Positions 8,557-31,331 of a DNA stretch of 64,000 nt are shown piece after piece. The stretch comes from an uncultured Candidatus Saccharibacteria bacterium (GTDB taxonomy: Bacteria; Patescibacteriota; Saccharimonadia; Saccharimonadales; CAIOMD01), in contig OY970318.1 of the NCBI GenBank assembly GCA_963716565.1, positions 580,284 to 644,283 on the forward strand. The letters are read 5' to 3'. A program made the position numbers and the translations under genes. Below the pieces are notes generated by a model. The model had not been told where the DNA came from and searched no databases. It saw only the letters and a program-made list of their open reading frames with translations. The stretch's first letter is position 1, and every line of letters starts with the position of its first letter.

Positions 8557-8578
8557 GTCCGTAGTATAGCAAAAAGAG

Positions 8579-8597
8579 GTACCCGACAGGATTCGAA
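8579..8597. repeat. duplicated 3' fragment of tRNA-Arg
   Basis: acccgacaggattcgaa (8581-8597) is identical to 8691-8707 inside the intact tRNA-Arg 110 bp away. The copy cannot fold into a cloverleaf. Confidence 0.7.
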
Positions 8598-8653
8598 AAC
8601 TGCTGGCGCACTGCGCCAGATCGTAGGCTCTAATCTATTGATATAAACCAAGT

Positions 8654-8680
8654 AAAAAGCCGGTCCAAAGACCGGCCCTT
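8654..8680 (-). terminator. rho-independent terminator after tRNA-Arg
   Basis: GCCGGTC (8659-8665)/GACCGGC (8670-8676) stem, followed on the minus strand by TTTTT. Confidence 0.75.
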
Positions 8681-8684
8681 TACT

Positions 8685-8760
8685 TGGTACACCCGACAGG
8701 ATTCGAACCTACGACCTTCGGCTCCGCAAGCCGACGCTCTATCCAGCTGAGCTACGGGTG
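8685..8760 (-). tRNA. tRNA-Arg (anticodon GCG), CCA encoded
   Basis: GCACCCG acceptor, D-arm GCTCAGCTGGATAGAGC, anticodon loop TTGCGGA, T-loop GGTTCGAATCC. Confidence 0.8.
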
Positions 8761-8813
8761 CTCGTCAGCGCCAATACTATAACAGATTAGCGCCGTTTTT
8801 TCTACTTCTAGAA

Positions 8814-9812: not shown

Positions 9813-9865
9813 ATTTAGCAATTACAATAGCACAGTTTTGACGTTTTGTCTAGTAGCTGCTTATG

Positions 9866-10570: not shown

Positions 10571-10623
10571 CACCAATAATTGTAGCACTTATGCTTATTT
10601 ACCGATAAAGCCTTTATAAAGAC

Positions 10624-10652
10624 AAAAGCCCAGGGTTGCCCCGGGGCTTTTT
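10624..10652 (-). terminator. GC-rich bidirectional hairpin terminator
   Basis: The sequence aaaagcccagggttgccccggggcttttt has A-run and T-run flanks and lies 19 nt downstream of the 10671 stop. Confidence 0.75.
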
Positions 10653-10670
10653 ATCCTGATACGATGTCCG

Positions 10671-11189
10671 CTACGATGCGATGGCCTTGTATACCGGCCA
10701 CGGCATCTGCTTGATGCGGTCTTCCCGCCCATTCCAAGCTTCGCGAGTTTGAGTGCGCTCCTGAGTAGACTCAGGGGTAAAGCACTCTTCCTCGGGGAAC
10801 TTGGCAATCTCGTCAAGCGGGTAAAACACTTCTAGATCCGCGCCGAGTTCCTCGACCGCCTTGCGCATGTCGCGCCTGGCCCTCCACAGGTGGGGGAGCA
10901 GAGCGACTACGCAAACCTTCTTGAAGCCGTTCTGGACAGCATACTCCACCGCCGCTCGACAAACCCGAAGCGTTGGTGGAGGCTTCTTGCCTTCAACCTC
11001 TTTGATTCGCACAACCGGCACGTCTTCGTCGGGCTCTATATCCCGCTGAGTGAAAACGACGCCGTTTAGCAACCTCGCCAGGTTAGACCCCAGCTTGGCA
11101 AGCCATCTGTTAGGCTTGATCGACGCCGGGACTCCGAAGGCCAAGACGACAACAAGAAACTCTCTTGGTTGACCATTCAAAGGTACCAC
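10671..11189 (-). CDS. hypothetical protein, compositionally atypical (GC-rich); possibly DUF218/YdcF-like
   Basis: 172-aa ORF. Two hand-counted 60-nt lines (10681-10740, 10741-10800) are 58% and 57% G+C, versus 47% (16081-16140) and 40% (60601-60660). Confidence 0.55.
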   Translation of the reverse strand: MVPLNGQPREFLVVVLAFGVPASIKPNRWLAKLGSNLARLLNGVVFTQRDIEPDEDVPVVRIKEVEGKKPPPTLRVCRAAVEYAVQNGFKKVCVVALLPHLWRARRDMRKAVEELGADLEVFYPLDEIAKFPEEECFTPESTQERTQTREAWNGREDRIKQMPWPVYKAIAS

Positions 11190-11325
11190 CCCTTTCAGGG
11201 ACTTGTGATTGTCTCAGGACGCAGTTATTATATCATTTATAGTAGTTCTTGGCAATACCATAGCGCCAGCAATAACAGGACACTACCTACAGATATTATC
11301 TAAATTAATGGCTACCTATAGCAAG

Positions 11326-12603
11326 CTAACCGCTGCGCCTATTTTCTTCTCGTTCTGCTCGCCGTTCGGTAAGCGTCCTTAGTTTTAAAAGCATAGTTTC
11401 GTCAATATTTTGTCGGTCAAATTTTTTGTCTTCGCCATAATCTTTTTCTTGGTAATAGCAGCTATCTATATCTATACCATTGCGCCCAATGGTTGCAAGT
11501 CGGGCTACATAATGGTCAAAGATGCTCTGCTTGGCAAAGCTATAGACGTCAACTTCTGCACCAGAATCGTTTGCAGCTAGCTCAACCTCTGGGAATAGCT
11601 CAACCAGCTTGCCTGCGCGCTTTTGGCGCACCAACTCTACGTCCACCTTCCATTGCTCTTTATCTAGTTCTGCATCCTTGGTAAATTTGTTTTCGCGCTC
11701 AGCATGTAGCCCCCATGAGCTACCTAAAGACGTGGAAACGGGCACAAGCTCATCGACAACCTGTAATGCTCGCGCAATCTGTGCGCTAAGCTCATCCCTA
11801 GTTGTTGATACTCGGTGTTTTCGGGGGAGCACCGCTGTTATGTATTTATTATCAAGCACCCCTTTAATATTCACCTCTTTGGACCTTGGGTTAAAATCCT
11901 CAATCCTAGAAAGAGGTATATCCAGCACTACCAGTCCTTTAGCTCCGTAGCCGGCCGCCTCGTACGGATTATAAGAGGCTGATATATACGGCGTTATACC
12001 ACTGTCGCAACGACCACCACTATGTTTTATTTGTCCAAAAACAAGTTCCTGGCGCGTACTGTAGCCTTGTAATATGCCGTCTTCGATAATAGCTACGTCC
12101 TCATCTAGACGACGAACCTCTTCTTGTGATAGTTGTGGCCTAACTTTATCGACGTATGCTAGGAGGGCTGCATATGTTGGCCTCTCGGCAAGAGCGGCCA
12201 CTTCTTGTCTGACACTTTCCAATATTATTGGCTTTCCCGCTTCGTTCTCGGCCCTCATAGCATAGGGAACCTGTTCGAATATAGAGGCATCAAGATTATT
12301 CACGCCTCGGTATATACGAACGGTGTATTCTGCAGGCGTTTCTTTTTTATCCAAAATTATCGCCTCAGAAAATTCACCGCCATCCTCAATTTTTATTATT
12401 TTGAAGCCGACCCCTAGCTCTGCAAATGACTCAAGCAATTTCTCGGAAGAGGCACTCGTCGCTGCCGATAGCCGGATGGGTGGATATCCTTCGCCATCTT
12501 GGCTCCTGGCAGGTTCTTCGAGCGCTACGTCAGCCATCTTAATAACTACTGGCACTCTGGATGGCTCTTCGCTAACTTCTTCTGTTGTTAGTTGTTCAGG
12601 CAT
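11326..12603 (-). CDS. hypothetical 425-aa protein with a possible R-S-E ADP-ribosyltransferase-like core
   Basis: Ordered motifs VRIYRGV ... PYISASYNP ... SKEVNIKG. The C-terminal third is charged and helical. The fold call is speculative. Confidence 0.6.
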   Translation of the reverse strand: MPEQLTTEEVSEEPSRVPVVIKMADVALEEPARSQDGEGYPPIRLSAATSASSEKLLESFAELGVGFKIIKIEDGGEFSEAIILDKKETPAEYTVRIYRGVNNLDASIFEQVPYAMRAENEAGKPIILESVRQEVAALAERPTYAALLAYVDKVRPQLSQEEVRRLDEDVAIIEDGILQGYSTRQELVFGQIKHSGGRCDSGITPYISASYNPYEAAGYGAKGLVVLDIPLSRIEDFNPRSKEVNIKGVLDNKYITAVLPRKHRVSTTRDELSAQIARALQVVDELVPVSTSLGSSWGLHAERENKFTKDAELDKEQWKVDVELVRQKRAGKLVELFPEVELAANDSGAEVDVYSFAKQSIFDHYVARLATIGRNGIDIDSCYYQEKDYGEDKKFDRQNIDETMLLKLRTLTERRAEREENRRSG

Positions 12604-12739
12604 TTTTGTTTTTACTGATTACACGCCTACGATAACGCAAATGCGTTGACTTTTCAATATTGGGAACGTGCCAACACCAACCATGTACTCAATCAGCAGG
12701 AACTTATATGGCGAATACTGGGTTTTGGCTTTGGGCTAA

Positions 12740-12828
<89 letters not shown>

Positions 12829-12880
12829 TCTAAAAGATTATATCATCAGATGGCCCCGGTATTTCTTAAAAGCAAAAGGC

Positions 12881-12909
12881 TTTATCTAAAGTGCTCTCGC
12901 TGTTATAAT
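12881..12909 (+). promoter_or_regulatory. extended -10 promoter candidate upstream of tRNA-Ser(GCU)
   Basis: TGTTATAAT (12901-12909) with a weak -35 TTTATC (12881-12886) at a 17-nt spacing. Confidence 0.4.
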
Positions 12910-13080
12910 TGCCCCTGTTCCGTAGGCCAAGTTTTTTAAACCAAGAAGCTTAAGTCAGTTGTTCTAAACTAACTTTTCAAACCAAGACTTGTCTGTTTGA
13001 AAAGTTAAGAGGAAGAATTGCGAAAGGTGATAGTTTGTGAGCCTATCGAACAAACGAAAACCGATAGCAAATTCTGACGC

Positions 13081-13173
13081 GGAGGAGTACCCAAGTGGCT
13101 GAAGGGGACGGTTTGCTAAATCGTTAGGGGGGAGCAATCTCCCGCGAGAGTTCGAATCTCTCCTCCTCCGCCA
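13081..13173 (+). tRNA. tRNA-Ser (anticodon GCT), CCA encoded
   Basis: Acceptor GGAGGAG/CTCCTCC, anticodon loop TTGCTAA, long variable arm, T-loop GAGAGTTCGAATCTCTC. Confidence 0.85.
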
Positions 13174-16068: not shown

Positions 16069-16491
16069 TTATCCCGTTGTAGTACCGTCGCCAACGTTAG
16101 TTATCACAAACCGAACAATTACCTGAGCTAGGGCAACAACGACTAAGCCAATAATGGCATACATAATCGTATTTTTAGCACCAGTAACGCCCTTTTCTTG
16201 GCCGCCAGAGGTAACGTATCTAAGACCAGCAATAATAATCATTATTACTGCAATTACGCCTACTACCCAAGATACAATATTGATAATCTTTTTAATAATA
16301 GACTGAGCAGATGATGTAGTTTCGTCATCTGGGATTGTACAGAGTCCATTCACCCATTCTCCGCCTCGCGTACCACATGCAAGTGGCGTGTCATCGGCTT
16401 GCGCCACAATTATTCCGCCGACACCCACAAAAGGGAACAGAGCCATAGACATAACACCAAGCGTTGCCAATATTGATTTAACTTTTTTCAT
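16069..16491 (-). CDS. VirB2/TrbC-like T4SS pilin paralog P1
   Basis: Signal peptide, Cys-bracketed loop LACGTRGGEWVNGLC, then the conserved two-helix core IVSWVVGVIAVIMIIIAGLRYVTSGG..AKNTIMYAIIGLVVVALAQVIVRFVI. Confidence 0.7.
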   Translation of the reverse strand: MKKVKSILATLGVMSMALFPFVGVGGIIVAQADDTPLACGTRGGEWVNGLCTIPDDETTSSAQSIIKKIINIVSWVVGVIAVIMIIIAGLRYVTSGGQEKGVTGAKNTIMYAIIGLVVVALAQVIVRFVITNVGDGTTTG

Positions 16492-16526
16492 CTACTTTTG
16501 TTCCTTATAGTTATTCTTATGCTTGT

Positions 16527-16536
16527 TTTATACCAC
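16527..16536 (-). promoter_or_regulatory. extended -10 element (GTGGTATAAA on minus strand) for P1
   Basis: TGnTATAAA lies about 30 nt upstream of ATG 16491. The same element and spacing occur upstream of P2. Confidence 0.4.
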
Positions 16537-16592
16537 TATTTACCCATCAAGACAATATGATTCTATGCAATTGGGCCAAGGATTTAGTTTTG

Positions 16593-17030
16593 TTAAACCT
16601 GTTTTATAACAAAATTAACAATTACCTGAGATAGGGCAACAACTACGATACCTATTAGGGCGTAAACAATTGTAGATCTGGCCTTTTTGGCCTTTTCGGG
16701 GTTGCCGGCCGACGTCGTAAACATCAGCCCCGAAGCTATAATCATAATCACCGAGATTGCGCCCACTACCCAAGAAACAATAGTGATTACCGTTTTGATT
16801 ACATCATTTACCGTAGAGGTGGGCGCGGCAACTGACGACGAGTCAAGATAGCATCCCGTAACACTGCCAACGGTAGTCCAGTCACCGTTCCTCGTTCCAC
16901 ATTCAGTCGGGGTAGTAATGTCCTTATTATAAGTAGGAGCCGCAAAAGACACCGCCGTAAAGCCCATAACTGAAACTAGCGATAATAACAAAATACCAAC
17001 GGCCGCTAACATCATCTTAATTTTTTTCAT
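16593..17030 (-). CDS. VirB2/TrbC-like T4SS pilin paralog P2
   Basis: Signal peptide, loop ECGTRNGDWTTVGSVTGC, core IVSWVVGAISVIMIIASGLMFTTSAGNPEKAKKARSTIVYALIGIVVVALSQVIVNFVI. Confidence 0.7.
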   Translation of the reverse strand: MKKIKMMLAAVGILLLSLVSVMGFTAVSFAAPTYNKDITTPTECGTRNGDWTTVGSVTGCYLDSSSVAAPTSTVNDVIKTVITIVSWVVGAISVIMIIASGLMFTTSAGNPEKAKKARSTIVYALIGIVVVALSQVIVNFVIKQV

Positions 17031-17061
17031 ACAATTTTATTCCTTTGATTACTTAATTACC

Positions 17062-17071
17062 TTTATACCAT
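17062..17071 (-). promoter_or_regulatory. extended -10 element (ATGGTATAAA on minus strand) for P2
   Basis: TGnTATAAA lies about 30 nt upstream of ATG 17030. Confidence 0.4.
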
Positions 17072-17132
17072 TAGAATTTTTAAACAGCAACCCGGCCATT
17101 AGCATAATTAAGAAGATTGGTGCCGTTTTGGT

Positions 17133-17513
17133 CTAGTTAACCTTTTTGATAACAAAATTAACAATCACTTGAGCCAATATAACAACTACTAATCCGATCA
17201 AGGCATACGTAATGGTAGATCTGGCCTTTTTTGTTTTTTCGGAATCACCGCCCGATGTTGCAAACGATAGCCCAGCAATTACTATCATAATGGCCGCAAT
17301 AACCCCCACTATCCAAGAAAGCAGATTAATTACTGTTTTAATCACTTTGTTAACCTCACCGCCACTAGTACAAACACCCGTGTCGGGGTTAACGCCCTTA
17401 CAAACTTCACTGGCTTGTGCGGCAACGGATACTGCCGGTACTGCTACAACCATAGAAGTTAACAGGCCCATGGCAGACACAATCACTATGGCAATTCTTG
17501 ACAATGTATTCAC
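17133..17513 (-). CDS. VirB2/TrbC-like T4SS pilin paralog P3
   Basis: GTG start preceded by GGAGGG; loop EVCKGVNPDTGVC; core LLSWIVGVIAAIMIVIAGLSFATSGGDSEKTKKARSTITYALIGLVVVILAQVIVNFVI. Confidence 0.7.
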   Translation of the reverse strand: MNTLSRIAIVIVSAMGLLTSMVVAVPAVSVAAQASEVCKGVNPDTGVCTSGGEVNKVIKTVINLLSWIVGVIAAIMIVIAGLSFATSGGDSEKTKKARSTITYALIGLVVVILAQVIVNFVIKKVN

Positions 17514-17527
17514 TAAAGCCCTCCTTT

Positions 17528-17935
17528 TTATAGCCTGCTAAGCGCAAACATTATTAATGTTCTGGCAACTAATACCACCGCTAGGCCGACAAGGGCATAG
17601 ATTATACCGTTGCGAGCCTCTGCCACCTTTTGCGAGTTACCTTGGGCGGTAGAAATTTTAATTGCCTGGATGATAATCCAAAAGACACCAATTACACCGG
17701 CTGCATAAGAAATCAGGTTAGTGACCTTGTAGACAATGCCATCGCTGCCAACTGGATCTTTATTAGGGTCACTTATAGACGCGCAATAGGCCGGCTTATC
17801 GCTGCCAGTCCAGCTCGCACAAATTTGTTCGGGAGTTTCAGCCAATACGGGTTGCCCTACAAACAGAAGTAGCGATACCGCGACTGTCAGCATAGCTACA
17901 AGCAGCATCCCCAACTTGGTCGTAAAACTACGCAT
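17528..17935 (-). CDS. VirB2/TrbC-like T4SS pilin paralog P4 (more divergent)
   Basis: Signal peptide, loop QICASWTGSDKPAYC, core LISYAAGVIGVFWIIIQAIKISTAQGNSQKVAEARNGIIYALVGLAVVLVARTLIMF. Its ATG overlaps the upstream stop (TAATG). Confidence 0.65.
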   Translation of the reverse strand: MRSFTTKLGMLLVAMLTVAVSLLLFVGQPVLAETPEQICASWTGSDKPAYCASISDPNKDPVGSDGIVYKVTNLISYAAGVIGVFWIIIQAIKISTAQGNSQKVAEARNGIIYALVGLAVVLVARTLIMFALSRL

Positions 17936-18711
17936 TAGACTGCCTTCTTAATTACAAAGTTGATAATCGTAGAGGCTAAAATCGCTACCGCCAAGCCGGT
18001 GAGGGCAAAGTAAATGGCGCTACGGGCTTTTTTGACTTTGTCGGGATTAGCGCTAGAAACCATAAACTGTATACCAGAAACGATTATAGTTATAACGCTA
18101 AGCGCGCCAAGTATCGTTAAAGCATAATTTGATATAGTCACAAAAGATCCAGTCGTGTCTGCAGTTACTAGGCCCCAATCATTTGTACCTGCGCTACTGC
18201 TTAATTTATTAGCGATAAAAGACACTGTTCGACCAGCGATTATAGCCATCACCGCGCCCACAATGGCGTTAGCTAGGGTTTTGCGGGCCGAAGCTATGGT
18301 ATCGGGCGCACCCTGGGCGGTCACGAATTTAAAACCGCCAATCATTACAAAAGCCACAGCCACCATGCCAGCTATCGTAAGAAGTATTTCTATCACCGCA
18401 AAGCCAATCAGCCAGATAGCCGTATGGTCGAACTTTCCAACCGGGCCCGAACCGGTATCCATTTTAATTGTGCAGTCATCTTTAAATGTTAGGTACTTAT
18501 ACCACAACGGAAAAATCAAGAAGCTGCCACCCCTGCATTGTTCGGCCGTCTTGTCGGCAAAGGTGGTTACTACTAATTCGCCTGCGTTTTTCTGACTAAT
18601 TGCTTTTGTTGGAGCCACCAAGAACAACCCAAACATCGCCAGCGCCACACAAAAACCAAATATTGTAAGACTAATCCGCTTTCTCAAAATACACCCCCCG
18701 GTATTAACCAT
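17935..18711 (-). CDS. tandem double pilin-module protein P5 (two VirB2-like two-helix cores in one chain)
   Basis: Module A: ILLTIAGMVAVAFVMIGGFKFVTAQGAPDTIASARKTLANAIVGAVMAIIAG. Module B: LTILGALSVITIIVSGIQFMVSSANPDKVKKARSAIYFALTGLAVAILASTIINFVIKK. The N-terminal loop is bracketed by Cys (EQC...DDC). An alternative TTG start lies at 18687. Confidence 0.65.
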   Translation of the reverse strand: MVNTGGCILRKRISLTIFGFCVALAMFGLFLVAPTKAISQKNAGELVVTTFADKTAEQCRGGSFLIFPLWYKYLTFKDDCTIKMDTGSGPVGKFDHTAIWLIGFAVIEILLTIAGMVAVAFVMIGGFKFVTAQGAPDTIASARKTLANAIVGAVMAIIAGRTVSFIANKLSSSAGTNDWGLVTADTTGSFVTISNYALTILGALSVITIIVSGIQFMVSSANPDKVKKARSAIYFALTGLAVAILASTIINFVIKKAV

Positions 18712-18968: not shown

Positions 18969-19039
18969 TTATTTAACCTAGTTCTTATTTTTTCATCATT
19001 TACACGCTTTTACAATCGTTTGCCCTTATTAAGTCGGTT

Positions 19040-19068
19040 TTTACTTTTTAAAAATTAAGAGATATACT
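19040..19068 (+). promoter_or_regulatory. promoter candidate for the plus-strand T4SS operon
   Basis: TTTACT (19040-19045), 17-nt AT-rich spacer, TATACT (19063-19068), 23 nt before ATG 19091. Confidence 0.35.
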
Positions 19069-19090
19069 ACATCTTGTAATAAGCATAAGC

Positions 19091-22000
19091 ATGGGGCTAC
19101 ATGTAGTGGGCAATACAAAATTAAAATCCGTTAAGAAAAAAATATTCTTATTCTTATTTGGTGGCTTGTTTGCTCTGAGCCTTTTTATTCAATACATACC
19201 CAACACCGCAAGCGCAAATACCGCTTTTGATGAGCGTGCATATAGAGAGACTTGGGCTCATACAGCCATGCTTAAGCTTCATATTATTGATTTTGCAACA
19301 AACTGTTACATACCAGGGCTCTATACTGTCAACGATGCGCGAGGGGGCTATTTTTTGTGGAGTAACGAAGGTCAAAATGTAGATATAGGATTTTATAGTG
19401 AGCCCGATGACGGTCGGTATCATTGTTGGGAGCTTTCTGTGGCACTTGGACGCATCGTGAAAGATTACTGGGGATACAACGAAATAGTGGATTTCGTAGA
19501 AGCATCTGGTTTTCCTAAAATTATAAGAGATAGGCTGCAGGAGCCGGGCGGCTCTAACGATTTAATATTCCACCCCTATAGAAGCGATGGCAGCATTAAC
19601 GAGGATATTGTTTATAAATTAAACAGGGATACACAGCTAACCCATTCGGTAGAAGCGGATAGTTTTTGGGAGATTTTTGGGATGGATCACGACATGGATG
19701 AAAGGGCCGAGGATCTTGATCCCACATTTTTGTACATGAATCCAGACGCAGCCATAAAAGAAAGTGAGGGCGTTTATAGAATTACAAAAGATGTTCCTGA
19801 TGCATCAACAAGAAAATCAATTCTTTTTAAATTGTTTGATGCAATTCCCGATCAATATCAAGACGTAGTCCGCAGAGATGATGGTACGAGTGAAATAGCC
19901 ACAAAAGCTGTCTTATACAGCTTATTTTATTGGAATTTTGCCGATGGCAAATGTGGAGCCAAATTTAGCAGTCTGTATTCCGCGGCCGCTCCTGAGATAA
20001 AGGCGCAGGTAGATAAATTGGATACTGATCCAAACACCGACACGACATTAGGGGCAACCGGTGGCTTTCAGTATTTTCCAATATATGGCATAGACCCCGG
20101 CGGCGCGTCAGGGTATACCACGCAAAAGTTAGTTTTTTCACTGCCTTCTAATTTTAAGGAAGATGACGGGCGGCGAATGGGGTGGTGGGCTTACCAATAT
20201 GGCGTGAGGCAGCCCGGTGACGATGATGATGAAGTATATAGCTGCAGACAGGCTGCTTACTGGCTATACCACAATAAAGCTCAGGCTGATGCGTTTGGTC
20301 AGTGGCTACAAGCCAATGGTGTTGCGCCTAGACTACCAGGCGATAGCACGACTGATCCGCCACCACCCAGCCCAGACGATCCGCCAGGAGACGAAGACGG
20401 CACCGACTATTCGAATACCTGTGAGGCTAAGCTGTCTTTTGGTTGGTTAATCTGTAAAGTCCTTAACGGCGTAGATAACCTGGTTGATTGGATACCAGAC
20501 GCGATAAAAAGCCAGATGGAGATCACTCCGAAAGACTATGAAGGCGTAGACAATACGCCCACTAAGGGCTCTCTATATAAAACTTGGTCGACAGTAAGAA
20601 ATATTGCTACTATTGTTGTTGTCCTTATTGCTTTGTTTATGATATTAGCCCAGATATTAAGCTTTGACTTTGTTAGTGCTTATACGATTAAAAAAGTTAT
20701 GCCGCGCTTGGTAATAGCGGTTATATTCATGCAGCTATCATGGATTATCTTTGCAAACGTAATAGACATTTTTAATATTTTAGGCAACGGCATGATGGAA
20801 CTTATTTTAGGGCCTTTCGGCGGCGAATCAGACGTTGGTCCGATGATACAGCGCCTATACGAAGTAGATAAGGGCGCCGTGTTATCCGGAGCTGGCCTGG
20901 GCGCAATAGGCGTAATAATCTTAGGGGTCGCGGCCATAGGAGCAGCTGGCATTAGTTTTGTATTGATAGGCTTAGCCCTTTTCATATTTTTCGGCATACT
21001 TTCTGTGTTCGTCACGCTAGCAATCAGAAAGATAGTGCTGATATTTTTATTGGCCTTAGCACCGCTAGCAATAGTGTTTTGGGTTTTGCCCAATACCCAA
21101 AAAGCGTGGAAGATGTGGTGGAGTAATTATTCTAAGTTATTAATGATGTTCCCGATTGCCATGGGATTCTTAGCAATAGGCCAGGCTTTTGCCAGCATGA
21201 CTTCTTATAACGCCCCTAGCGGTGAATTTGTGGGCTATTTTATTATATTAATAGCCTATTTCGGACCAATGTTTATGGTGCCAAAAACCTTTAAGATGGG
21301 CGGTTCAATAATGGCAGCCGTAGCTAAGGGCGTGAGCGACCTTAAAGACAAGTCCAAGAAGGGCATAAAAGAATCTATGCCAATGAAGAATTTAAAAGAA
21401 TCTCATCAATACAACAAACAAGCCAGGGGGCGTAGTTTGGCTGCCTCTGGAAGCAATCGCTTATCCAGGGCTTATGGAAGATGGCAGGCAGGGACAACTT
21501 GGCGCTATGGTCAGCACGGAGATTCAGCCAGTAGTGCAGCCGAAAAACAAAGAAAAGAAGATGCCGAGAACAGCATCATATCAGCTACTCGTAATCTGCA
21601 GGGCGCTGCAAAAACCGAAGCGCTGAGACGCATCATGGAACTTAGAGAAGGTCAGCACGCAGAAATTAATGGCCACAGAATTACGCATAGCCAACATGCG
21701 GTATCTGTAGCAGCGAGCCAATTGTTGGCTACGGGTGGGGATGATCAATTTAGGTCAACTATGTATGATTTGCAAGCAGCAGGTCAAGCGGCAGCTGCGC
21801 GTGGCGATCATGCAGTAGCAAGACAGCTCTATGAACAATACGCAACTATACAGTCCGATAATTTCCCAGAAATGAAGAAATCTGCCGCAGACCTTATCAG
21901 GGCATACAACCCCAATGATCCAGCTTTTGGTGGCAATGCTAGCCTTACAACGCCTGGCTCTTTCGAATCATCCAACCTTTCGGTGGACCTACTTACTAGT

Positions 22001-22345
22001 GCATATAGGAACATCATCAGGCCTGCTAGCGCAACTTCAGCGACACCAGGCAGCGCCGATTATGACCCGACTCGGGGCACATATCAAAGAGATTTTCAGG
22101 CGGCGGTTACAGCCGGACCGGCTGCTATTGGTGAGCTCCAAGGATTTGCACAACAGATCAATACGATTGCTGGAGACCCTAAGACCCAAAGAGAGATGGG
22201 GCCGCAAAAAATGTCTTACTTTATTGGGCTGCATCCCGTCGTAGCACAGGTATTAAACAGTAACGGGGCAATGAGGATGGATGTTACTGGTGGAGTATTG
22301 CGCGCCGTTCCTAATGCTCCGCAAGAAGTACGAGTAATCCCTTAA
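19091..22345 (+). CDS. VirB6/TrbL-like polytopic T4SS channel protein with large N-terminal ectodomain (1084 aa)
   Basis: Signal-anchor helix, ~430-aa soluble region, Pro/Asp linker TTDPPPPSPDDPPGDEDG, a block of about 7 TM helices (nt ~20590-21300) and a ~330-aa hydrophilic tail. It sits immediately upstream of the PrgI/VirB4 genes. Confidence 0.5.
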   Translation: MGLHVVGNTKLKSVKKKIFLFLFGGLFALSLFIQYIPNTASANTAFDERAYRETWAHTAMLKLHIIDFATNCYIPGLYTVNDARGGYFLWSNEGQNVDIGFYSEPDDGRYHCWELSVALGRIVKDYWGYNEIVDFVEASGFPKIIRDRLQEPGGSNDLIFHPYRSDGSINEDIVYKLNRDTQLTHSVEADSFWEIFGMDHDMDERAEDLDPTFLYMNPDAAIKESEGVYRITKDVPDASTRKSILFKLFDAIPDQYQDVVRRDDGTSEIATKAVLYSLFYWNFADGKCGAKFSSLYSAAAPEIKAQVDKLDTDPNTDTTLGATGGFQYFPIYGIDPGGASGYTTQKLVFSLPSNFKEDDGRRMGWWAYQYGVRQPGDDDDEVYSCRQAAYWLYHNKAQADAFGQWLQANGVAPRLPGDSTTDPPPPSPDDPPGDEDGTDYSNTCEAKLSFGWLICKVLNGVDNLVDWIPDAIKSQMEITPKDYEGVDNTPTKGSLYKTWSTVRNIATIVVVLIALFMILAQILSFDFVSAYTIKKVMPRLVIAVIFMQLSWIIFANVIDIFNILGNGMMELILGPFGGESDVGPMIQRLYEVDKGAVLSGAGLGAIGVIILGVAAIGAAGISFVLIGLALFIFFGILSVFVTLAIRKIVLIFLLALAPLAIVFWVLPNTQKAWKMWWSNYSKLLMMFPIAMGFLAIGQAFASMTSYNAPSGEFVGYFIILIAYFGPMFMVPKTFKMGGSIMAAVAKGVSDLKDKSKKGIKESMPMKNLKESHQYNKQARGRSLAASGSNRLSRAYGRWQAGTTWRYGQHGDSASSAAEKQRKEDAENSIISATRNLQGAAKTEALRRIMELREGQHAEINGHRITHSQHAVSVAASQLLATGGDDQFRSTMYDLQAAGQAAAARGDHAVARQLYEQYATIQSDNFPEMKKSAADLIRAYNPNDPAFGGNASLTTPGSFESSNLSVDLLTSAYRNIIRPASATSATPGSADYDPTRGTYQRDFQAAVTAGPAAIGELQGFAQQINTIAGDPKTQREMGPQKMSYFIGLHPVVAQVLNSNGAMRMDVTGGVLRAVPNAPQEVRVIP

Positions 22346-22355: not shown

Positions 22356-23387
22356 ATGGCAGAATACAAAGTAATCCAAGACATCGAAGCCGAAAACAAG
22401 CTTATCGGCCCCCTAACGTTAAAACAGTTTATTTTTGCCTGTATATCTTTTGGCTCTGGGTTTTTAGGCTTTATGATTGCCTCTAAAACAAGCCCAGTCG
22501 CTTTTATACCGTTTTTGCCATTTGTTATAATCCCTGGCGTTCTAGCCGCTCCGTTTGGCAAAGATCAGCCCACCGATATTTGGCTAGCGGCTAAGATTCG
22601 CTTTTTAATCAAGCCCCGCAAGCGCATTTGGGACCAGAGCGGTATAAAAAACTTGGTAAACATTACTGTCCCCAAAAAGGTTGTCCAACAATTAACAAAA
22701 AACCTAAACCAACAAGAGGTTAAAAGCCACCTACAAGCTTTAGCCGATATTATGGATACTCGCGGATGGGCCGCCAAAAGCGAAGACCTCAACTTATATA
22801 CCACACCTGCCTACGAAGTAGCCACAGAAAGCGATCGGCTGATTGACATCGATACCACCCCCGTAGCAGTACCAGATGTTAACGTTACCGCTGCCGACGA
22901 TATTCTAGATACTCAAAATAATGCCACAGCCAAACAGTTCGACACCATGATTAAAACTTCTTCTGCCAAACAACGCAAAGCCGCCGTAGAGCACATGAAA
23001 AAACTTTCTAAAACCCTAGACGCCCAAAGAGCTACGGAAGCTACTGGGAGCAGCTCGGCACAAAATGGCTACACCGACTTAACTATGTTTGGCGAACAAG
23101 TGGTAGCACCCCATCAATCCATTGCAACGGCTCAATCTGAGCCATCAAATGAAGAAACCTTGCTAATTAACCAGTTCGATCAAGATAAAGACCGAGCAGC
23201 AAAAATCGCTCGGCTAACATCGCCACACCATAAGATTATTAATCCAACTTCTGGACCCGTGACATCCCTTAATAACCCTGATATAGTTAGTTTAGCAAAT
23301 GCTGACTTAAAGATTTCTACGATCGCCGGCCTAGCTAATCGTAAAAGCTCGGCAGACAGCGGTGAATTAACGGTCAATTTGCAATAA
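22356..23387 (+). CDS. PrgI-family / VirB3-like T4SS membrane protein with long low-complexity tail
   Basis: N-terminus MAEYKVIQDIEAENKLIGPLTLKQFIFACISFG followed by two TM helices, located upstream of virB4. Confidence 0.55.
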   Translation: MAEYKVIQDIEAENKLIGPLTLKQFIFACISFGSGFLGFMIASKTSPVAFIPFLPFVIIPGVLAAPFGKDQPTDIWLAAKIRFLIKPRKRIWDQSGIKNLVNITVPKKVVQQLTKNLNQQEVKSHLQALADIMDTRGWAAKSEDLNLYTTPAYEVATESDRLIDIDTTPVAVPDVNVTAADDILDTQNNATAKQFDTMIKTSSAKQRKAAVEHMKKLSKTLDAQRATEATGSSSAQNGYTDLTMFGEQVVAPHQSIATAQSEPSNEETLLINQFDQDKDRAAKIARLTSPHHKIINPTSGPVTSLNNPDIVSLANADLKISTIAGLANRKSSADSGELTVNLQ

Positions 23388-23393
23388 TGTGGG

Positions 23394-23411
23394 GTCCGGC
23401 AGCTGCCGGAC
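23394..23411. other. perfect 18-nt palindrome between cistrons
   Basis: GTCCGGCAGCTGCCGGAC is its own reverse complement. It lies between the stop at 23387 and ATG 23419. Confidence 0.8.
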
Positions 23412-23418
23412 GGCAATT

Positions 23419-24342
23419 ATGGACCCAGACGCACCATTAAACAACCAAAACCAAGATGTTTCTAGTCCAAATATGGGCGGGCTGCCCGGGTTCCCGGGCA
23501 TTGCTCCTATGCAAGAGGCCACACAACCCACCGGCCAAACAGGCACCGTTCAGCCTTCTTATACTTCACTATTAAATAAATCGAGACAACAGGGCACCCC
23601 TGCTGTTAGCCACCCAAAAGCTAACCCCAATAGCACCCAGAACACTCTGCTAATAAACGAAATCCGTGATGGGGTAGTTATTATGAACGACGGCTCATTC
23701 CGTTCGGTTGTAATGGCTAAATCTGTTAACTTTGACCTTATGAGCCCCCAAGAACAAGAGTCTGTTGAGTTTGCCTACCAAGGTTTTCTGAACTCTTTAT
23801 ATTTTCCAATTCAAATTTTTATTCATTCGCAAAAGATCGATATTGGCCCCTACATCGATAAACTAAGTAAAATCCGTAGCGAACACGACAACATGCTACT
23901 AGCTATGCTTATGGATGATTACGTAAGTTTTGTTGTTGATGTAGCCACCCAGGCTAATATTATGGATAAGAAATTCTACGTTGTTACACCGTTCTTCCCA
24001 GAAGCCGACACTCAAAAAGCCATTAAAGCCAGTAAGAACTTCTTAACCGGTATATTCGGTCAGAAAGACCAAACTGTAACTATTAACGAAGTCGATTTGC
24101 AAAAGGCCATCCAAGAGCTTCGCAATCGCACACAAGCCATCATGGGCGGCTTACAGCAATGCGGGATACAGTGCCTGCCGCTAGACACCCAAGAATTGAT
24201 TGAGCTCTATTATGATGCCTACAACCCCGATACTGCCACTCGCCAACAGCTTAAAAATTTTGATGATTTAACTGCGCCGGTTGTCACTAAGGGCATGGGC
24301 GTAGCCAGTCGGCCAAATCTAAGACGAGAGCTAGGGGATTAA
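23419..24342 (+). CDS. T4SS protein resembling the N-terminal (non-ATPase) domain of Gram-positive-type VirB4; possible split-gene half
   Basis: It has no TM helix. The segment DGSFRSVVMAKSVNFDLMSPQEQESVEFAYQGFLNSLYFPIQIFIHSQKID recalls VirB4/TrsE N-domains. Its stop at 24340-24342 is 1 nt before the virB4 ATG. Confidence 0.45.
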   Translation: MDPDAPLNNQNQDVSSPNMGGLPGFPGIAPMQEATQPTGQTGTVQPSYTSLLNKSRQQGTPAVSHPKANPNSTQNTLLINEIRDGVVIMNDGSFRSVVMAKSVNFDLMSPQEQESVEFAYQGFLNSLYFPIQIFIHSQKIDIGPYIDKLSKIRSEHDNMLLAMLMDDYVSFVVDVATQANIMDKKFYVVTPFFPEADTQKAIKASKNFLTGIFGQKDQTVTINEVDLQKAIQELRNRTQAIMGGLQQCGIQCLPLDTQELIELYYDAYNPDTATRQQLKNFDDLTAPVVTKGMGVASRPNLRRELGD

Positions 24343-24343
24343 A

Positions 24344-26377
24344 ATGTTTGGCCTAGGCAAAAAACAACAACTAACCCCCGAGCAATATGCCCAACAACAG
24401 CGCCTAAATGAAGAGCTCGAGGTCCAGGCTGCTTTTGCAAAAGGCGAAACTGCCCTAAGGGATTTTATTGCTCCGAGTTCAATCGAGTTCCAAAGCACTC
24501 ATTTCCAAATCGGCACTAGACTTGCCCGCACCTACTATGTATACGGCTACCCCAGGCAGCTCTATACTGGTTGGCTCAGCAGCTTAACCAACATAGACGA
24601 AGTTATTGATTTATCAATTTACGTTTACCCTGTCGAAAGCCGGGTTGTATTAGAAAATCTGCGAAAAAAAGTTGGCCAATTAGAAGCCGGCGTTGCAATC
24701 GATAACGAAAAGGGTCGAGTGCGCGACCCAGGTAAAGAGGCCGCCATTCAAGACGCCGAGGATATGCGCGACAAGCTGCAAGTTGGCGAAGAGCGCTTTT
24801 TTAGGCTTGGCCTGTACTTCACTATTTATGGCGGCGACAAAGAAGAATTAGAATTTGTCAGCCATAAAATCGAGTCCTTGCTAGCCCAGCAATTAGTTTA
24901 TTCTAAGCCGGCCAGCTCACAGCAAGAACATGGCTTAAATAGCGTCATTCCGCAATTCATGGATCAACTACAGATAAGACGTAACATGAGCACCGGTGCT
25001 ATTAGCACTACATTCCCATTTACCAGTGCCGATTTATCTGACGACCACGGCGTATTGTACGGGATTAACATGCACAACTCTGGATTGGTAATATTTGACC
25101 GCTTTAGCCTAGAAAACAGCAACAGCGTGGTCTTTGCTAAGGCCGGTGCCGGCAAGAGCTTTGCCGTTAAGCTTGAGGCTCTGCGCTATCTAATGCTGGG
25201 CACCGAAATTTTTATTATCGACCCCGAAAACGAATACGAAAAGATGAGCGATAGTGTAGGTGGGGCCTACATAAAACTATCGCTGAACTCTCCTACTCGC
25301 ATTAATCCGTTTGAATTGCCCAAGGTCGTTGACGCCGAAGAAGCCGATAACGCATTGCGCGGCAACCTAATTACTTTGCACGGCTTACTGCGCCTAATGA
25401 TGGGCGGAGCCCAGCTACAAATGGTTGGCGGCCAAACCGTACCAGCCTTGAACCCAGTAGAAGAGGCCGACCTAGATACTGCCCTAATCGAAACTTACGC
25501 CAAAGCCGGCATTACTAACGACCCGCTCACTCATCGTTCAACCCCACCAACAATATCCGATTTATACGATACTTTATTGCACATGGGCGGGACTGGTCCG
25601 CAATTAGCCCAACGCTTGCGCAAGTATACCAGCGGCACCTTTGCTGGCATTTTTAGCCAACAAAGCAATGTCGATATTAATAACCCAATGGTGGTATTTA
25701 ACATCCGAGACTTAGAAGACGAACTGCGACCAGTTGCCATGTATATTGTGCTTAATTACATATGGAACAAGACCAAGGCCGATCAACGTCGTCGCCTGTT
25801 GATAATAGACGAAGCCTGGCAGCTAATGAAATACGAAGATAGCGCTAACTTTATGTTTAGCTTAGCTAAGCGTTGTAGAAAATATAATTTGGGCTTAACC
25901 ACCATTTCGCAAGATGTAGAAGATTTTATAAGTTCTAGAATGGGACGAGCAATCGTGGCCAACTCATCCATGCAGTTGCTTTTAAAACAAAGCCCCAGCG
26001 CCGTTGATTTATTAGCCGATGTCTTTAAGCTCACCAGTGAAGAAAGTAAAAGACTAAGCCAGTTCCCAGTTGGTCAAGGGCTGTTCTTTGCCGGGCAAAA
26101 CCATGTACATGTTCAGATATTACCCAGCCCTACCGAAACCAGCATTATTTCTACCACTCCCGGGGAAGTACAACAAGAAGTAGGGCCGGCAGAGATACCA
26201 TTAGATAGTTCCTTTGAAGCAGCCCCCCCGAATGACAGTGAGGCAGCTGCAGCGCCAGTAGCTCCGGTCGTCCAGCCCAAAGAACAGCCAGCCACACCGC
26301 CCATAGCGCCCACAACAACTCCACCTAATCAAGCTAGCAGTCAAACAATATCCATTAACCACGACACCAAAGCCTAA
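24344..26377 (+). CDS. virB4: VirB4-family T4SS ATPase
   Basis: Walker A FAKAGAGKSF, Walker B RRLLIIDEAWQL and the N-terminal IAPSSIEFQSTHFQIGTRLARTYYVYGYP motif. The C-terminus is a Pro/Ala-rich tail. Confidence 0.85.
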   Translation: MFGLGKKQQLTPEQYAQQQRLNEELEVQAAFAKGETALRDFIAPSSIEFQSTHFQIGTRLARTYYVYGYPRQLYTGWLSSLTNIDEVIDLSIYVYPVESRVVLENLRKKVGQLEAGVAIDNEKGRVRDPGKEAAIQDAEDMRDKLQVGEERFFRLGLYFTIYGGDKEELEFVSHKIESLLAQQLVYSKPASSQQEHGLNSVIPQFMDQLQIRRNMSTGAISTTFPFTSADLSDDHGVLYGINMHNSGLVIFDRFSLENSNSVVFAKAGAGKSFAVKLEALRYLMLGTEIFIIDPENEYEKMSDSVGGAYIKLSLNSPTRINPFELPKVVDAEEADNALRGNLITLHGLLRLMMGGAQLQMVGGQTVPALNPVEEADLDTALIETYAKAGITNDPLTHRSTPPTISDLYDTLLHMGGTGPQLAQRLRKYTSGTFAGIFSQQSNVDINNPMVVFNIRDLEDELRPVAMYIVLNYIWNKTKADQRRRLLIIDEAWQLMKYEDSANFMFSLAKRCRKYNLGLTTISQDVEDFISSRMGRAIVANSSMQLLLKQSPSAVDLLADVFKLTSEESKRLSQFPVGQGLFFAGQNHVHVQILPSPTETSIISTTPGEVQQEVGPAEIPLDSSFEAAPPNDSEAAAAPVAPVVQPKEQPATPPIAPTTTPPNQASSQTISINHDTKA

Positions 26378-26502
26378 TCTAGGAGTCGGTTAATTTGCTC
26401 AATCAACATTTTTGCCCACAATCACAGTAAGAGAACTCTGCCACCTGGGTAGGCTCACAGGCTATCCAAAAAACACCTTAACCCCTATAATATAAATTGC
26501 TT

Positions 26503-29500: not shown

Positions 29501-29931
29501 AACGCGAGTCACAATGGGGTCGCAAAGAACTAATTCAAACAATCTGGCAAGTCGGCTTAAAGTGGGCCGAGTTGCACCCCGGTATTAAGTTTGGTGTTGG
29601 AGATTTAGACCAAAGCGATGGCCATGTGTCGCATGTAAAAGGCATTAATGTAGACATATCTGGCTGCCCGATGATGAGCACCTGTTCTGACTACAACCAA
29701 GATTATGCTATAGAGCTTGCAAAATTATTCTTCGATACAAGCACGCTGGGCAGTATTCTGTATAATGACGTGGCTGTTCAGAACGCCGTTAATACCTATG
29801 TAGATCAAAACGACTTGAATAAAAATGCTTTGAGTAACGGTTATGCCGGCGACATGCATTATTATGATAACCACGACAACCACTTTCATGTCACGGTTGT
29901 ACCTGGCATTACGCCCAAGGGGTGTGAATAA
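26503..29931 (+). CDS. giant membrane protein (1142 aa) with C-terminal LAS-type (peptidase M15-like) zinc metallopeptidase domain
   Basis: N-terminal TM helix IIAGGVGAGLITALIAVGSLFGFL and mid-protein TM helices. The C-terminal motifs are SHVKGINVD (HxxGxxxD) and HDNHFHV (HxH). ATG 26503 is preferred over TTG 26497. Confidence 0.6.
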   Translation: MPVYDSETNEPKKSATKSDDIAQKEEAASGDPAYTQNAGAGAEKERDFFKNEAANKHNASVGGFKGKLSGFSSKKIIAGGVGAGLITALIAVGSLFGFLNVFKLEHIMQSIEQRAFSRYQVSMDGRSDRWLRSYMRARVGEIDTVDGKTVDVNQRRSIFFTADKVDTNHPFTDWYRTLRTSKFEADLLREYGISFSGVATQNGDLVQFRSARINFSPKDGIDIDMGDFNQQFKDRFGTDFTIDTLNDPNGDKMRFLSERFDVEIEKFDSNKTARRAIKKAVNEKTHSWQVVKRRHIRKWIQNKTGVRSWRFFDKTRTRMEEKIISIRNRIIRQMFPDSTVLGKFIQCVFGVTACRPAADPGNPDTNADTSSNSSNRRMSDRQEEYPDPNDPNKTLTSGADDALDRVAKEGTEILGENLAEDGTQPAVQKVLLMGAKTEAAKAVLDVAKKLIPFANIIDMAETLNVINKMFKAHTITKLVATARGVQALALYTTYQTAADELKADSTGTTNEEVSALMTTIDSVSKSEGWVGAIDSPDSSAEAEGTVAFAKDRNEYCSDTHQAAIAANPIAYDDEFAYVCDDKKIGGSSLGASIESWWNNSVGLAISGLLTFWNSQGNVGRWLWRGLNWLLGEAVGIIIDGFKLLVPGSVEKWVGDTIDSMFGWVITKILLYIGAGPMLNGDEPSGVFANTIIQGATYAAESSSRNSGASLTNDESESLAIAMADQYYEDYYTDQSLFGRYFALDNPDSAMSKSLFASIENNTVNNVAGLFSRLVKTVGKLPMSFFSKPATAGSESAYAAANFAGIDTFDFPQQCYDLDPLTMTPQQATNVNNILSQFDVEQFSADELTWDILNDSEAFYNKMYSKIRDRYGDDFNTDAFMDVIELKGFDPRNYGVFDGLRTGEIEDFVGLGDVEIIAKQVYNCAALDTTVRGGLGYVYGYDSDNGLSANDQSTPSTGSCEGLTLVGPESGHGGSQVEGHDQYQLPADNPGYYIYPNNAAQRESQWGRKELIQTIWQVGLKWAELHPGIKFGVGDLDQSDGHVSHVKGINVDISGCPMMSTCSDYNQDYAIELAKLFFDTSTLGSILYNDVAVQNAVNTYVDQNDLNKNALSNGYAGDMHYYDNHDNHFHVTVVPGITPKGCE

Positions 29932-31331
29932 TGCTAATCCATCAACAACCAACGCCAACCTTAAAATTCTTTAGCTTAATAATAAAAACCCGTGTGCTAG
30001 CATTATTTGTCTTTGCGTTGCTTTGTTTATTATCATTCATGCTCCTGATGAAAAACGAGGCTTATGGGGCAGAAGATAGTCGGGCAACCGATTTGAAATC
30101 AATTTTTGAGGATTCAACTTTTTTTGAGCCAGATGCCTGCGTTCCAAGCACACCCAACGCAGCAACTGGCGCTGACACGGCTGTCAGCCCGAATGCCGCT
30201 ACCATCTGGAATTACTTGATAGATAAAGGACTGTACCCTATACAAGCAGCTGGGATTTTAGGCAACATTCAAAGGGAGTCCAACTTTAGCCCAGAAGCAC
30301 TTAATCCCAGCAGCGGATCATATGGCATAGTGCAGTGGCTCGGCGGTAGAAAAACTAAATTGCAAGCCTTAGCTAATTATCAAACGCTCGAGGTACAAAT
30401 GGATTATATGTGGTCAGAACTGCAGGGTGCCTATAAAAATAGCGTTTTTAACAAAATTACCGCCGCCGATACAATCGAAAAGACCACCTGGATAGTATTA
30501 ACAGCTTATGAAATACCCTGCATAGGCGACCCAAATATTGTAAATGGCTCCACGGGATGCAAGACAGAGTACGAAAAAAGACTCCAATTTGCCCAACAGC
30601 TCCTAGCCCAGCTTGACGATGGCACGGCTGCCGATAGCTGCTCGCAATCCATCGATGATCCCGTCTTTGTTAAGCTATACGAAAACGCCAGCGCAGAAAA
30701 CATGGAGGCAATAGATGCAATGGATCATGGCCCCATCGAACCAGATATTTTTGTAATTCATTTTACCGTAGGCAACACAGAAGGCATGGGTTTGGCTAAA
30801 TACTTTCATAGGAGCGGCCGAGGATTAGGTGTCCAATTCTCGGTGGGTAAAGATGGCACAACCTATCAATATTTCCCTATGGACAACATGCGTCGTACCG
30901 CTCACGCAAACAGCGTCAACAGCCACGCCCTGGGCGTTGAAATTAATGCTCGTGACGCCAACGAATTGCTAAATAACAAAGACCAGTTTAAAGCTATGGT
31001 TTCTTTGGCAAAATACGTGTGTGAATATTACAGCATGCCCTGCTCCGACCCCAAAGGCGACATTACAGGCTCGTCCGCAAGTGACGCTCAGGGATTGCTA
31101 GGGCACAGCGAAGCGCCGGGTAACACGCATAGCGATCCAGACACCATAAACGGCAACACCAGCTTATGTACGGGTAGATATATTGATAGGTCCGACGCCA
31201 GCACCCATGCCTATATGCTAAAACTAAGAAGAGCCTTGGGCTATACCTCATTCATCGAGGGTAGCGAAAAGTGCGCCAGCGGAGGACAATATGACGATCT
31301 GTTAAATAATTGGCTGGAGGAGTTTCGGTGA
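29931..31331 (+). CDS. bifunctional cell-wall hydrolase: lysozyme-like (phage-tail-lysozyme type) plus N-acetylmuramoyl-L-alanine amidase (amidase_2/PGRP) domains
   Basis: GILGNIQRESNFSPEALNPSSGSYGIVQWLGGRKTKL; then IFVIHFTVGN, AHANSVNSHALGVEI and LLGHSEAPGNTHSDP. TAATG overlap with the upstream gene; N-terminal TM anchor. Confidence 0.7.
   Translation: MLIHQQPTPTLKFFSLIIKTRVLALFVFALLCLLSFMLLMKNEAYGAEDSRATDLKSIFEDSTFFEPDACVPSTPNAATGADTAVSPNAATIWNYLIDKGLYPIQAAGILGNIQRESNFSPEALNPSSGSYGIVQWLGGRKTKLQALANYQTLEVQMDYMWSELQGAYKNSVFNKITAADTIEKTTWIVLTAYEIPCIGDPNIVNGSTGCKTEYEKRLQFAQQLLAQLDDGTAADSCSQSIDDPVFVKLYENASAENMEAIDAMDHGPIEPDIFVIHFTVGNTEGMGLAKYFHRSGRGLGVQFSVGKDGTTYQYFPMDNMRRTAHANSVNSHALGVEINARDANELLNNKDQFKAMVSLAKYVCEYYSMPCSDPKGDITGSSASDAQGLLGHSEAPGNTHSDPDTINGNTSLCTGRYIDRSDASTHAYMLKLRRALGYTSFIEGSEKCASGGQYDDLLNNWLEEFR

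Follow-up and report, generated by a model that had tools for sequence, protein, structure and literature searches.

A two-module type IV secretion system pilin of an uncultured Candidatus Saccharibacteria bacterium as a probable composite of two neighbouring pilins

We analyzed a stretch of 64,000 nucleotides (hereafter, the window) from an uncultured Candidatus Saccharibacteria bacterium (assembly GCA_963716565.1, contig OY970318.1, positions 580,284 to 644,283 of the forward strand). In the window, six consecutive genes on the minus strand encode small pilins beside the core genes of a type IV secretion system (T4SS). The second of these genes, P5, encodes two pilin modules in one polypeptide. 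A sequence-only reading of this DNA had described P5 as two complete copies of a two-helix pilin core in series. Two complete modules are present, but they are not copies of one pilin: they are orthologues of two distinct genes, B and C, which are neighbours in the pilin arrays of other genomes. The fusion of B and C suggests that these pilins are adjacent to each other and present in equal numbers.

Results

The P5 gene and its product

P5 is encoded at 17935..18687 on the minus strand (250 amino acids plus the stop codon), if the favoured TTG start is used. The longer open reading frame (ORF) of 258 amino acids (17935..18711, -), which the sequence-only reading had reported, is present and uninterrupted under code 11. 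The ambiguity of the start noted there is real: ATG 18711 overlaps the preceding pilin gene P6 by 28 nt, and TTG 18687 makes a TTGA overlap with the P6 stop codon. Several features indicate that TTG 18687 is most likely the start. The database version of the protein (P0001) matches the 250-amino acid form exactly, and P5 orthologues begin at, or carry, Met at the equivalent position. A run of GGGGGG is found 7-12 nt ahead of TTG 18687; no purine-rich stretch was found upstream of ATG 18711. Furthermore, the TTG start yields a classic leader (MRKRISLTIFGFCVALAMFGLFLVAPTKA), in which MRKR is followed by a hydrophobic core and TKA. On the basis of the database form, the orthologue Met and the upstream sequence, ATG 18711 was rejected. 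It should be mentioned that the peptide MVNTxG, encoded upstream of the TTG, seems to be conserved because it overlaps, in another frame, the conserved C-terminus of the A-type gene. Residue numbers of the Cys loop, modules, linker and helices below are those of the 250-amino acid form, unless the 258-amino acid ORF is stated.

The predicted signal peptide covers residues 1-29 (18601..18687, -). Its hydropathy maximum is found at residues 7-25 (mean Kyte-Doolittle value 2.51), four Lys or Arg residues are present in the leader, and AlphaFold2 places a helix at residues 2-22. This is followed by a loop between Cys51 and Cys72 (18472..18537, -), which bears a FLIFPxWYKYL motif specific to B-type pilins; in P5, the enclosed sequence is FLIFPLWYKYL. 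Thus, the Cys-bracketed N-terminal segment of the earlier description was recovered as C51 and C72. Both residues are invariant across six orthologues, and C51 is invariant across 79 fused homologues; the loop between them is likewise invariant or almost so in these sequences. No Pfam family matched this N-terminal loop.

The remainder of P5 consists of the two modules and a linker. Module 1, of B type (18199..18426, -), forms helices 88-123 and 128-163 around the loop TAQGAPD. Module 2, of C type (17938..18156, -), forms helices 178-210 and 215-249 around the loop SSANPD. These assignments were made by Pfam, AlphaFold2 and hidden Markov models (HMMs) of the array gene classes. Between the modules, residues 164-177 (SSSAGTNDWGLVTA; 18157..18198, -) form a linker; its counterpart by homology is the N-terminal region of C in loci where C is a separate gene. 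The Pfam family PF18895 (T4SS_pilin) matched whole P5 in two stretches with 46.8 bits. When the two parts were searched separately, residues 81-165 scored 27.5 bits and residues 166-250 scored 32.9 bits, both above the 26.6-bit gathering threshold. With a module HMM derived from the pilins of the window, the modules were located at residues 99-170 and 187-256 of the 258-amino acid ORF, in agreement with the two cores first proposed (approximately 100-165 and 190-255). The halves align with each other (BLASTP, 31% identity over 59 residues, E=4e-10), and both align column for column, in register, with P1-P4 and P6. Each module possesses the two long hydrophobic helices and the short polar basic loop that are typical of PF18895, and the net charges of the two hairpin loops are +2 and +3.

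The AlphaFold2 model of P5, calculated with 79 homologues, has a mean predicted local distance difference test score (pLDDT) of 77 and comprises the leader helix, a small beta motif at approximately residues 55-75 and four long helices. In the Cys loop, where the small beta elements lie, pLDDT is 86-90. In a model of module 2 alone, helices were placed at residues 14-45 and 50-84.

The two modules match two different positions of a conserved pilin array

As a comparison set, all ORFs of 59 loci from other species-representative Saccharibacteria-type genomes were scanned with the module HMM. The order of array genes is A-B-C-D-E-F in nearly all of these loci; the length of A is variable, and further copies sometimes follow F. 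The B genes encode proteins of approximately 120-200 amino acids with one module and are the only array genes with the Cys...FPxWYKYL...Cys motif. The C genes encode proteins of approximately 91-118 amino acids, again with one module. B and C are separate, adjacent genes in 56 of the 59 loci, and a B-C fusion was found in one only (L002). A metagenome locus outside this set, that of protein P0005 (L001), also carries the fusion.

The best match of P5 module 1 was the B gene in all 59 loci, and that of module 2 was the C gene in 36 of the 59. The class HMMs gave the same assignment, B for module 1 with 95 bits (margin +38) and C for module 2 with 75 bits (margin +10). Because the two modules match different positional orthologues, both in best matches and in class HMM margins, we conclude from these comparisons that P5 is a composite of two distinct neighbouring positional paralogues, B and C, and not an internal duplication. 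P5 shows the marks of a composite ("Rosetta-stone") fusion, namely parts that occur as individual genes in 56 of 59 loci, membership in a fused clade of 14 sequences, and fused loci (L001 and L062) that are syntenic with the window.

The other pilins of the window fall into place around P5, so that P6, P5, P4, P3 and P2/P1 correspond to array positions A, B+C, D, E and F. P6 (18684..18968, -; 94 amino acids), the stop codon of which overlaps the P5 start, has an A gene as its best match in 55 of 59 loci and is of A type by class HMM (96 bits, margin +48). P4 (17528..17935, -), the start codon of which overlaps the P5 stop codon in the sequence TAATG, matches D by best match and class HMM. P3, P2 and P1 (together 16069..17513, -) are E/F-type pilins with leaders and Cys pairs by Pfam, best matches and class HMM: P3 (17133-17513, -) matches E, and P2 (16593-17030, -) and P1 (16069-16491, -) match F/E. 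All six pilins match PF18895; the score of P6 (26.2 bits) is slightly under the gathering cut-off.

The B-C junction and the leaderless C gene

In the split genomes, the B stop codon and the C start codon mostly overlap (ATGA) or abut, with a median gap of -1 nt. The N-terminal region of C, a median of 33 amino acids ahead of the module, is polar and contains a motif like G-L-P/V-x-V-x-A. The same motif is present in the P5 linker (DWGLVTAD), and its G-L is invariant in the orthologues. Among 80 fused B-C proteins, the linker between the module envelopes has a median length of 21 residues (5-95% range, 13-34).

A hydrophobic leader precedes the module in 98-100% of the A, D, E and F genes, in 39% of the B genes and in 4% of the C genes. 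From this distribution, C is judged to be the leaderless member of the array. Because C is leaderless, its joining to B removes no signal peptide and leaves the topology coherent, and this would account for B-C being by far the commonest fusion. In the split loci (56 among L003-L060; for example, L010 8334-8630 and L011 4491-4766), the leader is absent from C in 96% and from B in 61%.

Across L003-L060, the genes A-B-C-D(-E) overlap or abut (median gaps from -4 to +8 nt). The median spacing is 8 nt between D and E and approximately 71 nt between E and F. Copy number varies only downstream of D, where one to six copies of the E/F types are found; the genes from A to D each occur once and are closely coupled. 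In the window, overlaps likewise link P6 to P5 (TTGA) and P5 to P4 (TAATG). P2 and P1, copies of E/F type, each follow a gap of approximately 100 nt.

Fused and multi-module pilins recur in metagenomes

When 1.84 billion cluster representatives were searched exhaustively with a profile, 20,870 hits were obtained at E<=0.001, of which 2,297 were at E<=1e-10. Modules were counted in the best 150 of the 20,870 hits and in the first seven proteins; since fused proteins score higher, this top-150 list favours them and indicates the breadth of the architecture, not its frequency. Seventy-two of these proteins have the N-terminal motif and two modules, 21 have two modules with no match to the motif, and 15 have three modules. 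Single chains of 4, 5, 6, 7, 8 and 11 modules were also present, for example P0091 (1147 amino acids), P0014 (820 amino acids) and P0012 (552 amino acids); P0049 and P0128 likewise belong to these "poly-pilins" of 4-11 modules. By class HMMs, 94 two-module proteins are B-C and seven three-module proteins are B-C-D. In P0091, each of the 11 modules follows a Cys-containing linker, and a non-pilin domain is found at the C-terminus. A different combination occurs in a Saccharimonadales metagenome-assembled genome (MAG), in which C and D are fused (L045 5888-6433, +; 181 amino acids; class HMM margins +17 and +15) and B is separate.

We considered whether the multi-module chains are artefacts of stop codon read-through or of an alternative genetic code. 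This was rejected: the linkers are continuous, short and polar or Cys-containing, no leader-like or start-like segments are embedded in the chains, and P0097 (606 amino acids, seven modules; L061 8001-9821) is a normal ORF in a pilin array on a chromosomal contig of 120 kb. Seven single-module pilin genes lie beside P0097, and four of them encode proteins of exactly 106 amino acids. Judged from these hits, multi-module T4SS_pilin proteins are not rare in metagenomes, and P5 is a recurrent architecture and not a one-off.

The fusion is inherited in the lineage of the window

The sequence-only reading had named two findings that would undo its claim, halves that do not align with each other or with P1-P4, and a sequencing error that merged two genes; it had also looked to related genomes for the same fused architecture. 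The halves do align, as described above. As to a sequencing error, an independent Logan contig of 9.4 kb encodes the identical 250-amino acid protein, with the same genes around it. In related genomes, fused orthologues with 46-74% identity were found, and word-index searches gave 14 further fused P5 homologues in all (34-74% identity). In L001 and L062, the fused loci are syntenic with the window: the pilins are followed by HSP20 and then by a ComF-type phosphoribosyltransferase, and L062 also carries VirB6-like, PrgI and VirB4 genes on the other side of the pilins. Both loci have one ORF fewer and no separate C gene. We conclude from these comparisons that P5 is a genuine, inherited gene fusion and not an assembly error.

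In a midpoint-rooted neighbour-joining (NJ) tree of the B part (183 sequences, approximately 110 aligned residues), the fused and split states are clustered yet interspersed, with at least 21 changes of state. P5 of the window is placed in a clade of 14, all fused, and the enclosing clade holds 98 split and 40 fused sequences. We read this tree as showing an inherited fusion in the lineage of the window.

At the deep nodes, the opposite direction of change has to be weighed, namely an ancestral fused form from which separate B and C genes arose by fission. The absence of a leader from C in 96% of the split loci is expected of a gene born from an internal module, the midpoint root of the tree is in the fused state, and many of the 50%-identity clusters are fused. 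However, the fused clade of the window is nested among mostly split sequences, the B-C fusion occurs in just one of the 59 loci from species-representative genomes, the tree was built from only about 110 aligned residues, and the top-150 list is biased to fused proteins. We regard ancestral fusion with later fission as somewhat improbable, although it would not change the reading of B and C as an obligate pair. Whichever the direction, B and C behave as a single unit in evolution.

The T4SS neighbourhood

The pilin cluster is transcribed divergently from the remaining T4SS genes. The first of these (19091..22345, +) encodes a VirB6/TrbL-like polytopic membrane protein of 1084 amino acids; PF19590 (TrbL_3) is on record for the exact product, and our own Pfam scan of this protein gave no match. 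A PrgI (VirB3-like) family protein follows (22356..23387, +; PF12666, E=1.7e-9). The VirB4-type ATPase (23389..26377, +; NF045971 conju_CD1110, 358 bits against a cut-off of 325) is encoded by two abutting ORFs, an N-terminal TrsD/TraC-like part (23389-24342, +) and then the ATPase part (24344-26377, +). In L062, VirB4 is in more pieces (324, 220, 84 and 266 amino acids), which could be real splits or frameshifts of that assembly. Farther downstream, a cell-wall hydrolase with lysozyme and amidase domain matches (29931..31331, +) is a candidate for a VirB1-like role. An ORF of 1144 amino acids (26497-29931, +) lies between the VirB4 and lysozyme/amidase genes and has zero Pfam matches. Thus, the pilins lie beside VirB4, VirB6-like and VirB3/PrgI core genes, as is typical of PF18895, and the same arrangement is found in L062.

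The genes recF, dnaN and dnaA are located at 32697-36930 (-), approximately 14-18 kb from the pilin operon. This puts the T4SS cluster near the probable origin of replication, a location also reported in some other Candidate Phyla Radiation genomes. The window shows the gene layout published for origin-proximal chromosomal T4SSs of Patescibacteria (10.1101/2025.01.22.634366). On the other side, a terminator-like hairpin after P1 (16023..16042), identified by a consensus match only, is likely the end of the pilin operon.

Several other observations were made in these loci. P6 has neither the signal peptide nor the Cys-containing region of its L062 orthologue (145 amino acids), a leader being present in 98% of A genes elsewhere, and the divergent intergenic region (18969-19090) is too small for a longer P6. 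Upstream of the pilin region, clustered within 6 kb (7584-13173), three tRNA-Ser (CGA, TGA and GCT) and one tRNA-Arg (GCG) are encoded, the sole Rfam matches in the window. In the comparison set, a MAG titled Burkholderiaceae (L056, JAYVTZ010000012.1) carries a Saccharibacteria-type array of ten pilin genes, in which B possesses FPxWYKYL; this is probably a mis-binned Patescibacteria contig.

Discussion

A proposed topology and role for P5

The explanation that we favour as a whole, and consider fairly probable, is that P5 is an inherited B-C fusion, that B and C are neighbours at 1:1 in a heteromeric T4SS filament or conduit, and that this pair is a minor specialized component rather than the shaft. 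The Sec signal peptide would put the mature N-terminus of P5 outside. Both basic hairpin loops would then face the cytoplasm, and the linker and the C-terminus would be outside, giving four membrane helices. This topology would work because each module would be N-out/C-out, and since C is normally leaderless, joining C to B would need no other change. The adjacent VirB4, VirB6-like and PrgI machinery would extract P5 from the membrane, after which P5 would be incorporated, along with the A, D and E/F pilins, into a VirB2-like filament or conduit of heteromeric composition. In other words, P5 would supply B and C as a ready-made pair with B beside C. Other genomes would approach the same 1:1 ratio through the overlap of the B stop and C start codons; in P5, the covalent linkage would enforce it.

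In the conjugative pili of solved structure, the lumen is lined by the basic loop, and the termini are close enough for cyclization in TrhA and TrbC (PMC12037004). If the termini of each module are at the same hairpin end, the C-terminus of module 1 and the N-terminus of module 2 emerge on the same side, so that a short linker could join adjacent subunits. The head-to-tail link of P5 would lie on the outer face, and approximately 20 residues would reach the neighbouring subunit at the helical rise of approximately 12 Å of solved pili. Because A, B, C and D are single-copy and coupled, in contrast to the copy-variable E/F types, the B-C unit is more likely a specialized minor component, acting in initiation, at the base or in a tip complex, with E/F as the bulk subunit. 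This assignment is the weakest step of the proposal. The functional ideas of the sequence-only reading, a fixed stoichiometry or geometry of two protomers and a role as a pilus base, tip adaptor or nucleator, are compatible with these observations.

Several points weigh against this explanation. Fusions of adjacent genes mirror gene order by construction; they show that linkage is tolerated, not the order of subunits in a structure. The B-part tree, with its 21 or more changes of state and its fused root, is compatible with either direction of change. Filament formation by these pilins is supposed by analogy with VirB2-type pilins, and the TrbC/VirB2 family PF04956 gave no match to P5 at E<=0.1 in Pfam. 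The disulfide between C51 and C72 and the cleavage of the signal peptide after TKA are both presumed. In the proposed topology, the C-terminal KK of P5 would be external, which deviates slightly from the positive-inside rule. When the full AlphaFold2 model, which is of moderate confidence, was compared with the PDB by Foldseek, no significant or pilin match was found, only helical bundles (V-ATPase c subunit and BAR domains). For the module 2 model, the conjugative pilus subunit of Aeropyrum pernix (8dfu) was matched at rank 3 (TM-score 0.65/0.66, probability 0.82), but with E=1.5.

A different fate for P5 also has to be considered. P5 may stay in the membrane as a four-helix integral component of the T4SS base, such as a platform or nucleator, and not polymerize. 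Its four long hydrophobic helices suit this role, as do its single copy, its specialized N-terminal domain and its tight coupling to A and D, and T4SSs of Gram-positive type are generally without pili (PMC10633639, PMC12857230). However, both modules are ordinary members of the family of the presumed shaft pilins, the B and C of two-gene loci resemble any other small pilin, and no sequence feature separates a membrane-resident from an extractable form. We think that a membrane-resident P5 is unlikely.

The origin of P5 by internal tandem duplication of a single pilin gene is very unlikely. The halves are homologous and both are T4SS_pilin, as such an origin would have it. Nevertheless, they are just 31% identical and each is nearer to a different positional orthologue (B in 59/59 and C in 36/59 loci), the two parts are separate genes in most loci, and the P5 linker bears the G-L(P/V) motif that separate C genes carry at the N-terminus. 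Finally, B and C could have been joined artificially, by a frameshift, by an error of assembly or by gene calling across a stop codon, and a single-base error would be enough, since these genes normally abut or overlap, but we dismiss such an artefact as extremely improbable, because the ORF is uninterrupted under code 11, the independent Logan assembly encodes the identical protein, and the same architecture occurs in 14 clade members and approximately 90 cluster representatives, the fused loci having no separate C.

Implications of the B-C fusion

Saccharibacteria require the T4SS, including the pilin series, to grow on their hosts (PMC10633639). The B-C fusion is genomic evidence suggesting that two members of the array act together at equal stoichiometry. 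Moreover, it suggests that B ends and C begins on one and the same side of the membrane or filament, with approximately 20 residues at most between these two termini. The conserved positional orthologues favour a heteromeric structure in which the pilins divide the labour over antigenic variation.

A broader idea can be put forward tentatively. It is possible that Patescibacteria T4SS_pilin arrays encode a heteromer of fixed composition rather than exchangeable or antigenically variable pilins, in which B-C is an obligate pair that switches repeatedly between two chains and one, and in which the B-C-D, C-D and 4-11-module chains are sectors or a whole turn of a tube, in the manner of the fused proteolipids of ATPase rotor rings. 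If this is true, the fusions are a natural map of subunit neighbours in an essential epibiotic conduit, for secretion or uptake, without a solved structure. The fusions suggest constraints for structural modelling that can be tested, and the multi-module chains may be of use in engineering single-chain pilus or nanotube scaffolds.

Comparison with known systems

The closest system is the pilin array of the Southlakia epibionticum type. In S. epibionticum ML1, the T4SS pilin series (SEML1_0006-0019) is essential for epibiotic growth, as determined by transposon sequencing (Wang et al. 2023, PMC10633639). Six divergent VirB2-like pilins have been described in the Saccharibacteria T4SS (PMC12857230), and Patescibacteria VirB2 arrays of 2-11 genes have been reported, for which antigenic or host-range variation was proposed (10.1101/2025.01.22.634366). 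The window shares with this type the PF18895 family, the position beside VirB6-like, PrgI and VirB4 genes and near dnaA, and the ordered series of divergent paralogues. By the comparisons above, the array members are conserved positional orthologues, which argues against the proposed antigenic or host-range variation. The difference is that the published pilins are separate single-module genes, whereas in the window two members are one polypeptide. In the literature that we searched, no prior description of tandem, fused or multi-module VirB2-like pilins was found, which is not proof that none exists. The present analysis adds the reading of P5 as a B+C composite of normally separate neighbours, the recognition of C as the leaderless partner, and the wide recurrence of fusions of up to 11 modules.

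The modules of P5 also resemble the conjugative pilins VirB2, TraA, TrbC and TrhA (PF04956) and the archaeal CedA1. All are small helix-loop-helix proteins with a basic loop and with termini at the same hairpin end, encoded together with a VirB4 ATPase. Among the paralogues in the window, P1 scored 26.8 bits with PF04956, slightly under the cut-off of 27.9, and P3 scored 21.1 bits. The A. pernix subunit 8dfu is the best full-length structural match of module 2, although this match is suggestive and not significant, and a PDB sequence search with a profile of the 79 fused homologues gave no match. These pilins differ from P5 in that they are single modules that form homopolymers. Furthermore, in some of them the head and tail of one subunit are joined by cyclization (PMC12037004), whereas in P5 the head-to-tail link connects two different subunits.

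The Mbov_0395 family of pilin-like conjugal transfer proteins from integrative and conjugative elements of Mycoplasma (NF045849) is the sole NCBIfam match of P5. It aligns with module 2 at residues 185-247 (E=1.2e-6). P5 scores 28.1 bits against the curated cut-off of 40 and is not a member, and the family is single-module.

The proteolipid (c/K) hairpins of the rotor rings of V- and A-type ATPases occur, according to lineage, as single hairpins or as double, triple and many-fold tandem fusions, which fix the number and the neighbours of the subunits. The V-ATPase c subunit was the top Foldseek match of the full P5 model, with a non-significant E value of 0.28. The proteolipids belong to a different machine and are not homologous to P5; in architecture and evolutionary logic only, they are its nearest analogy.

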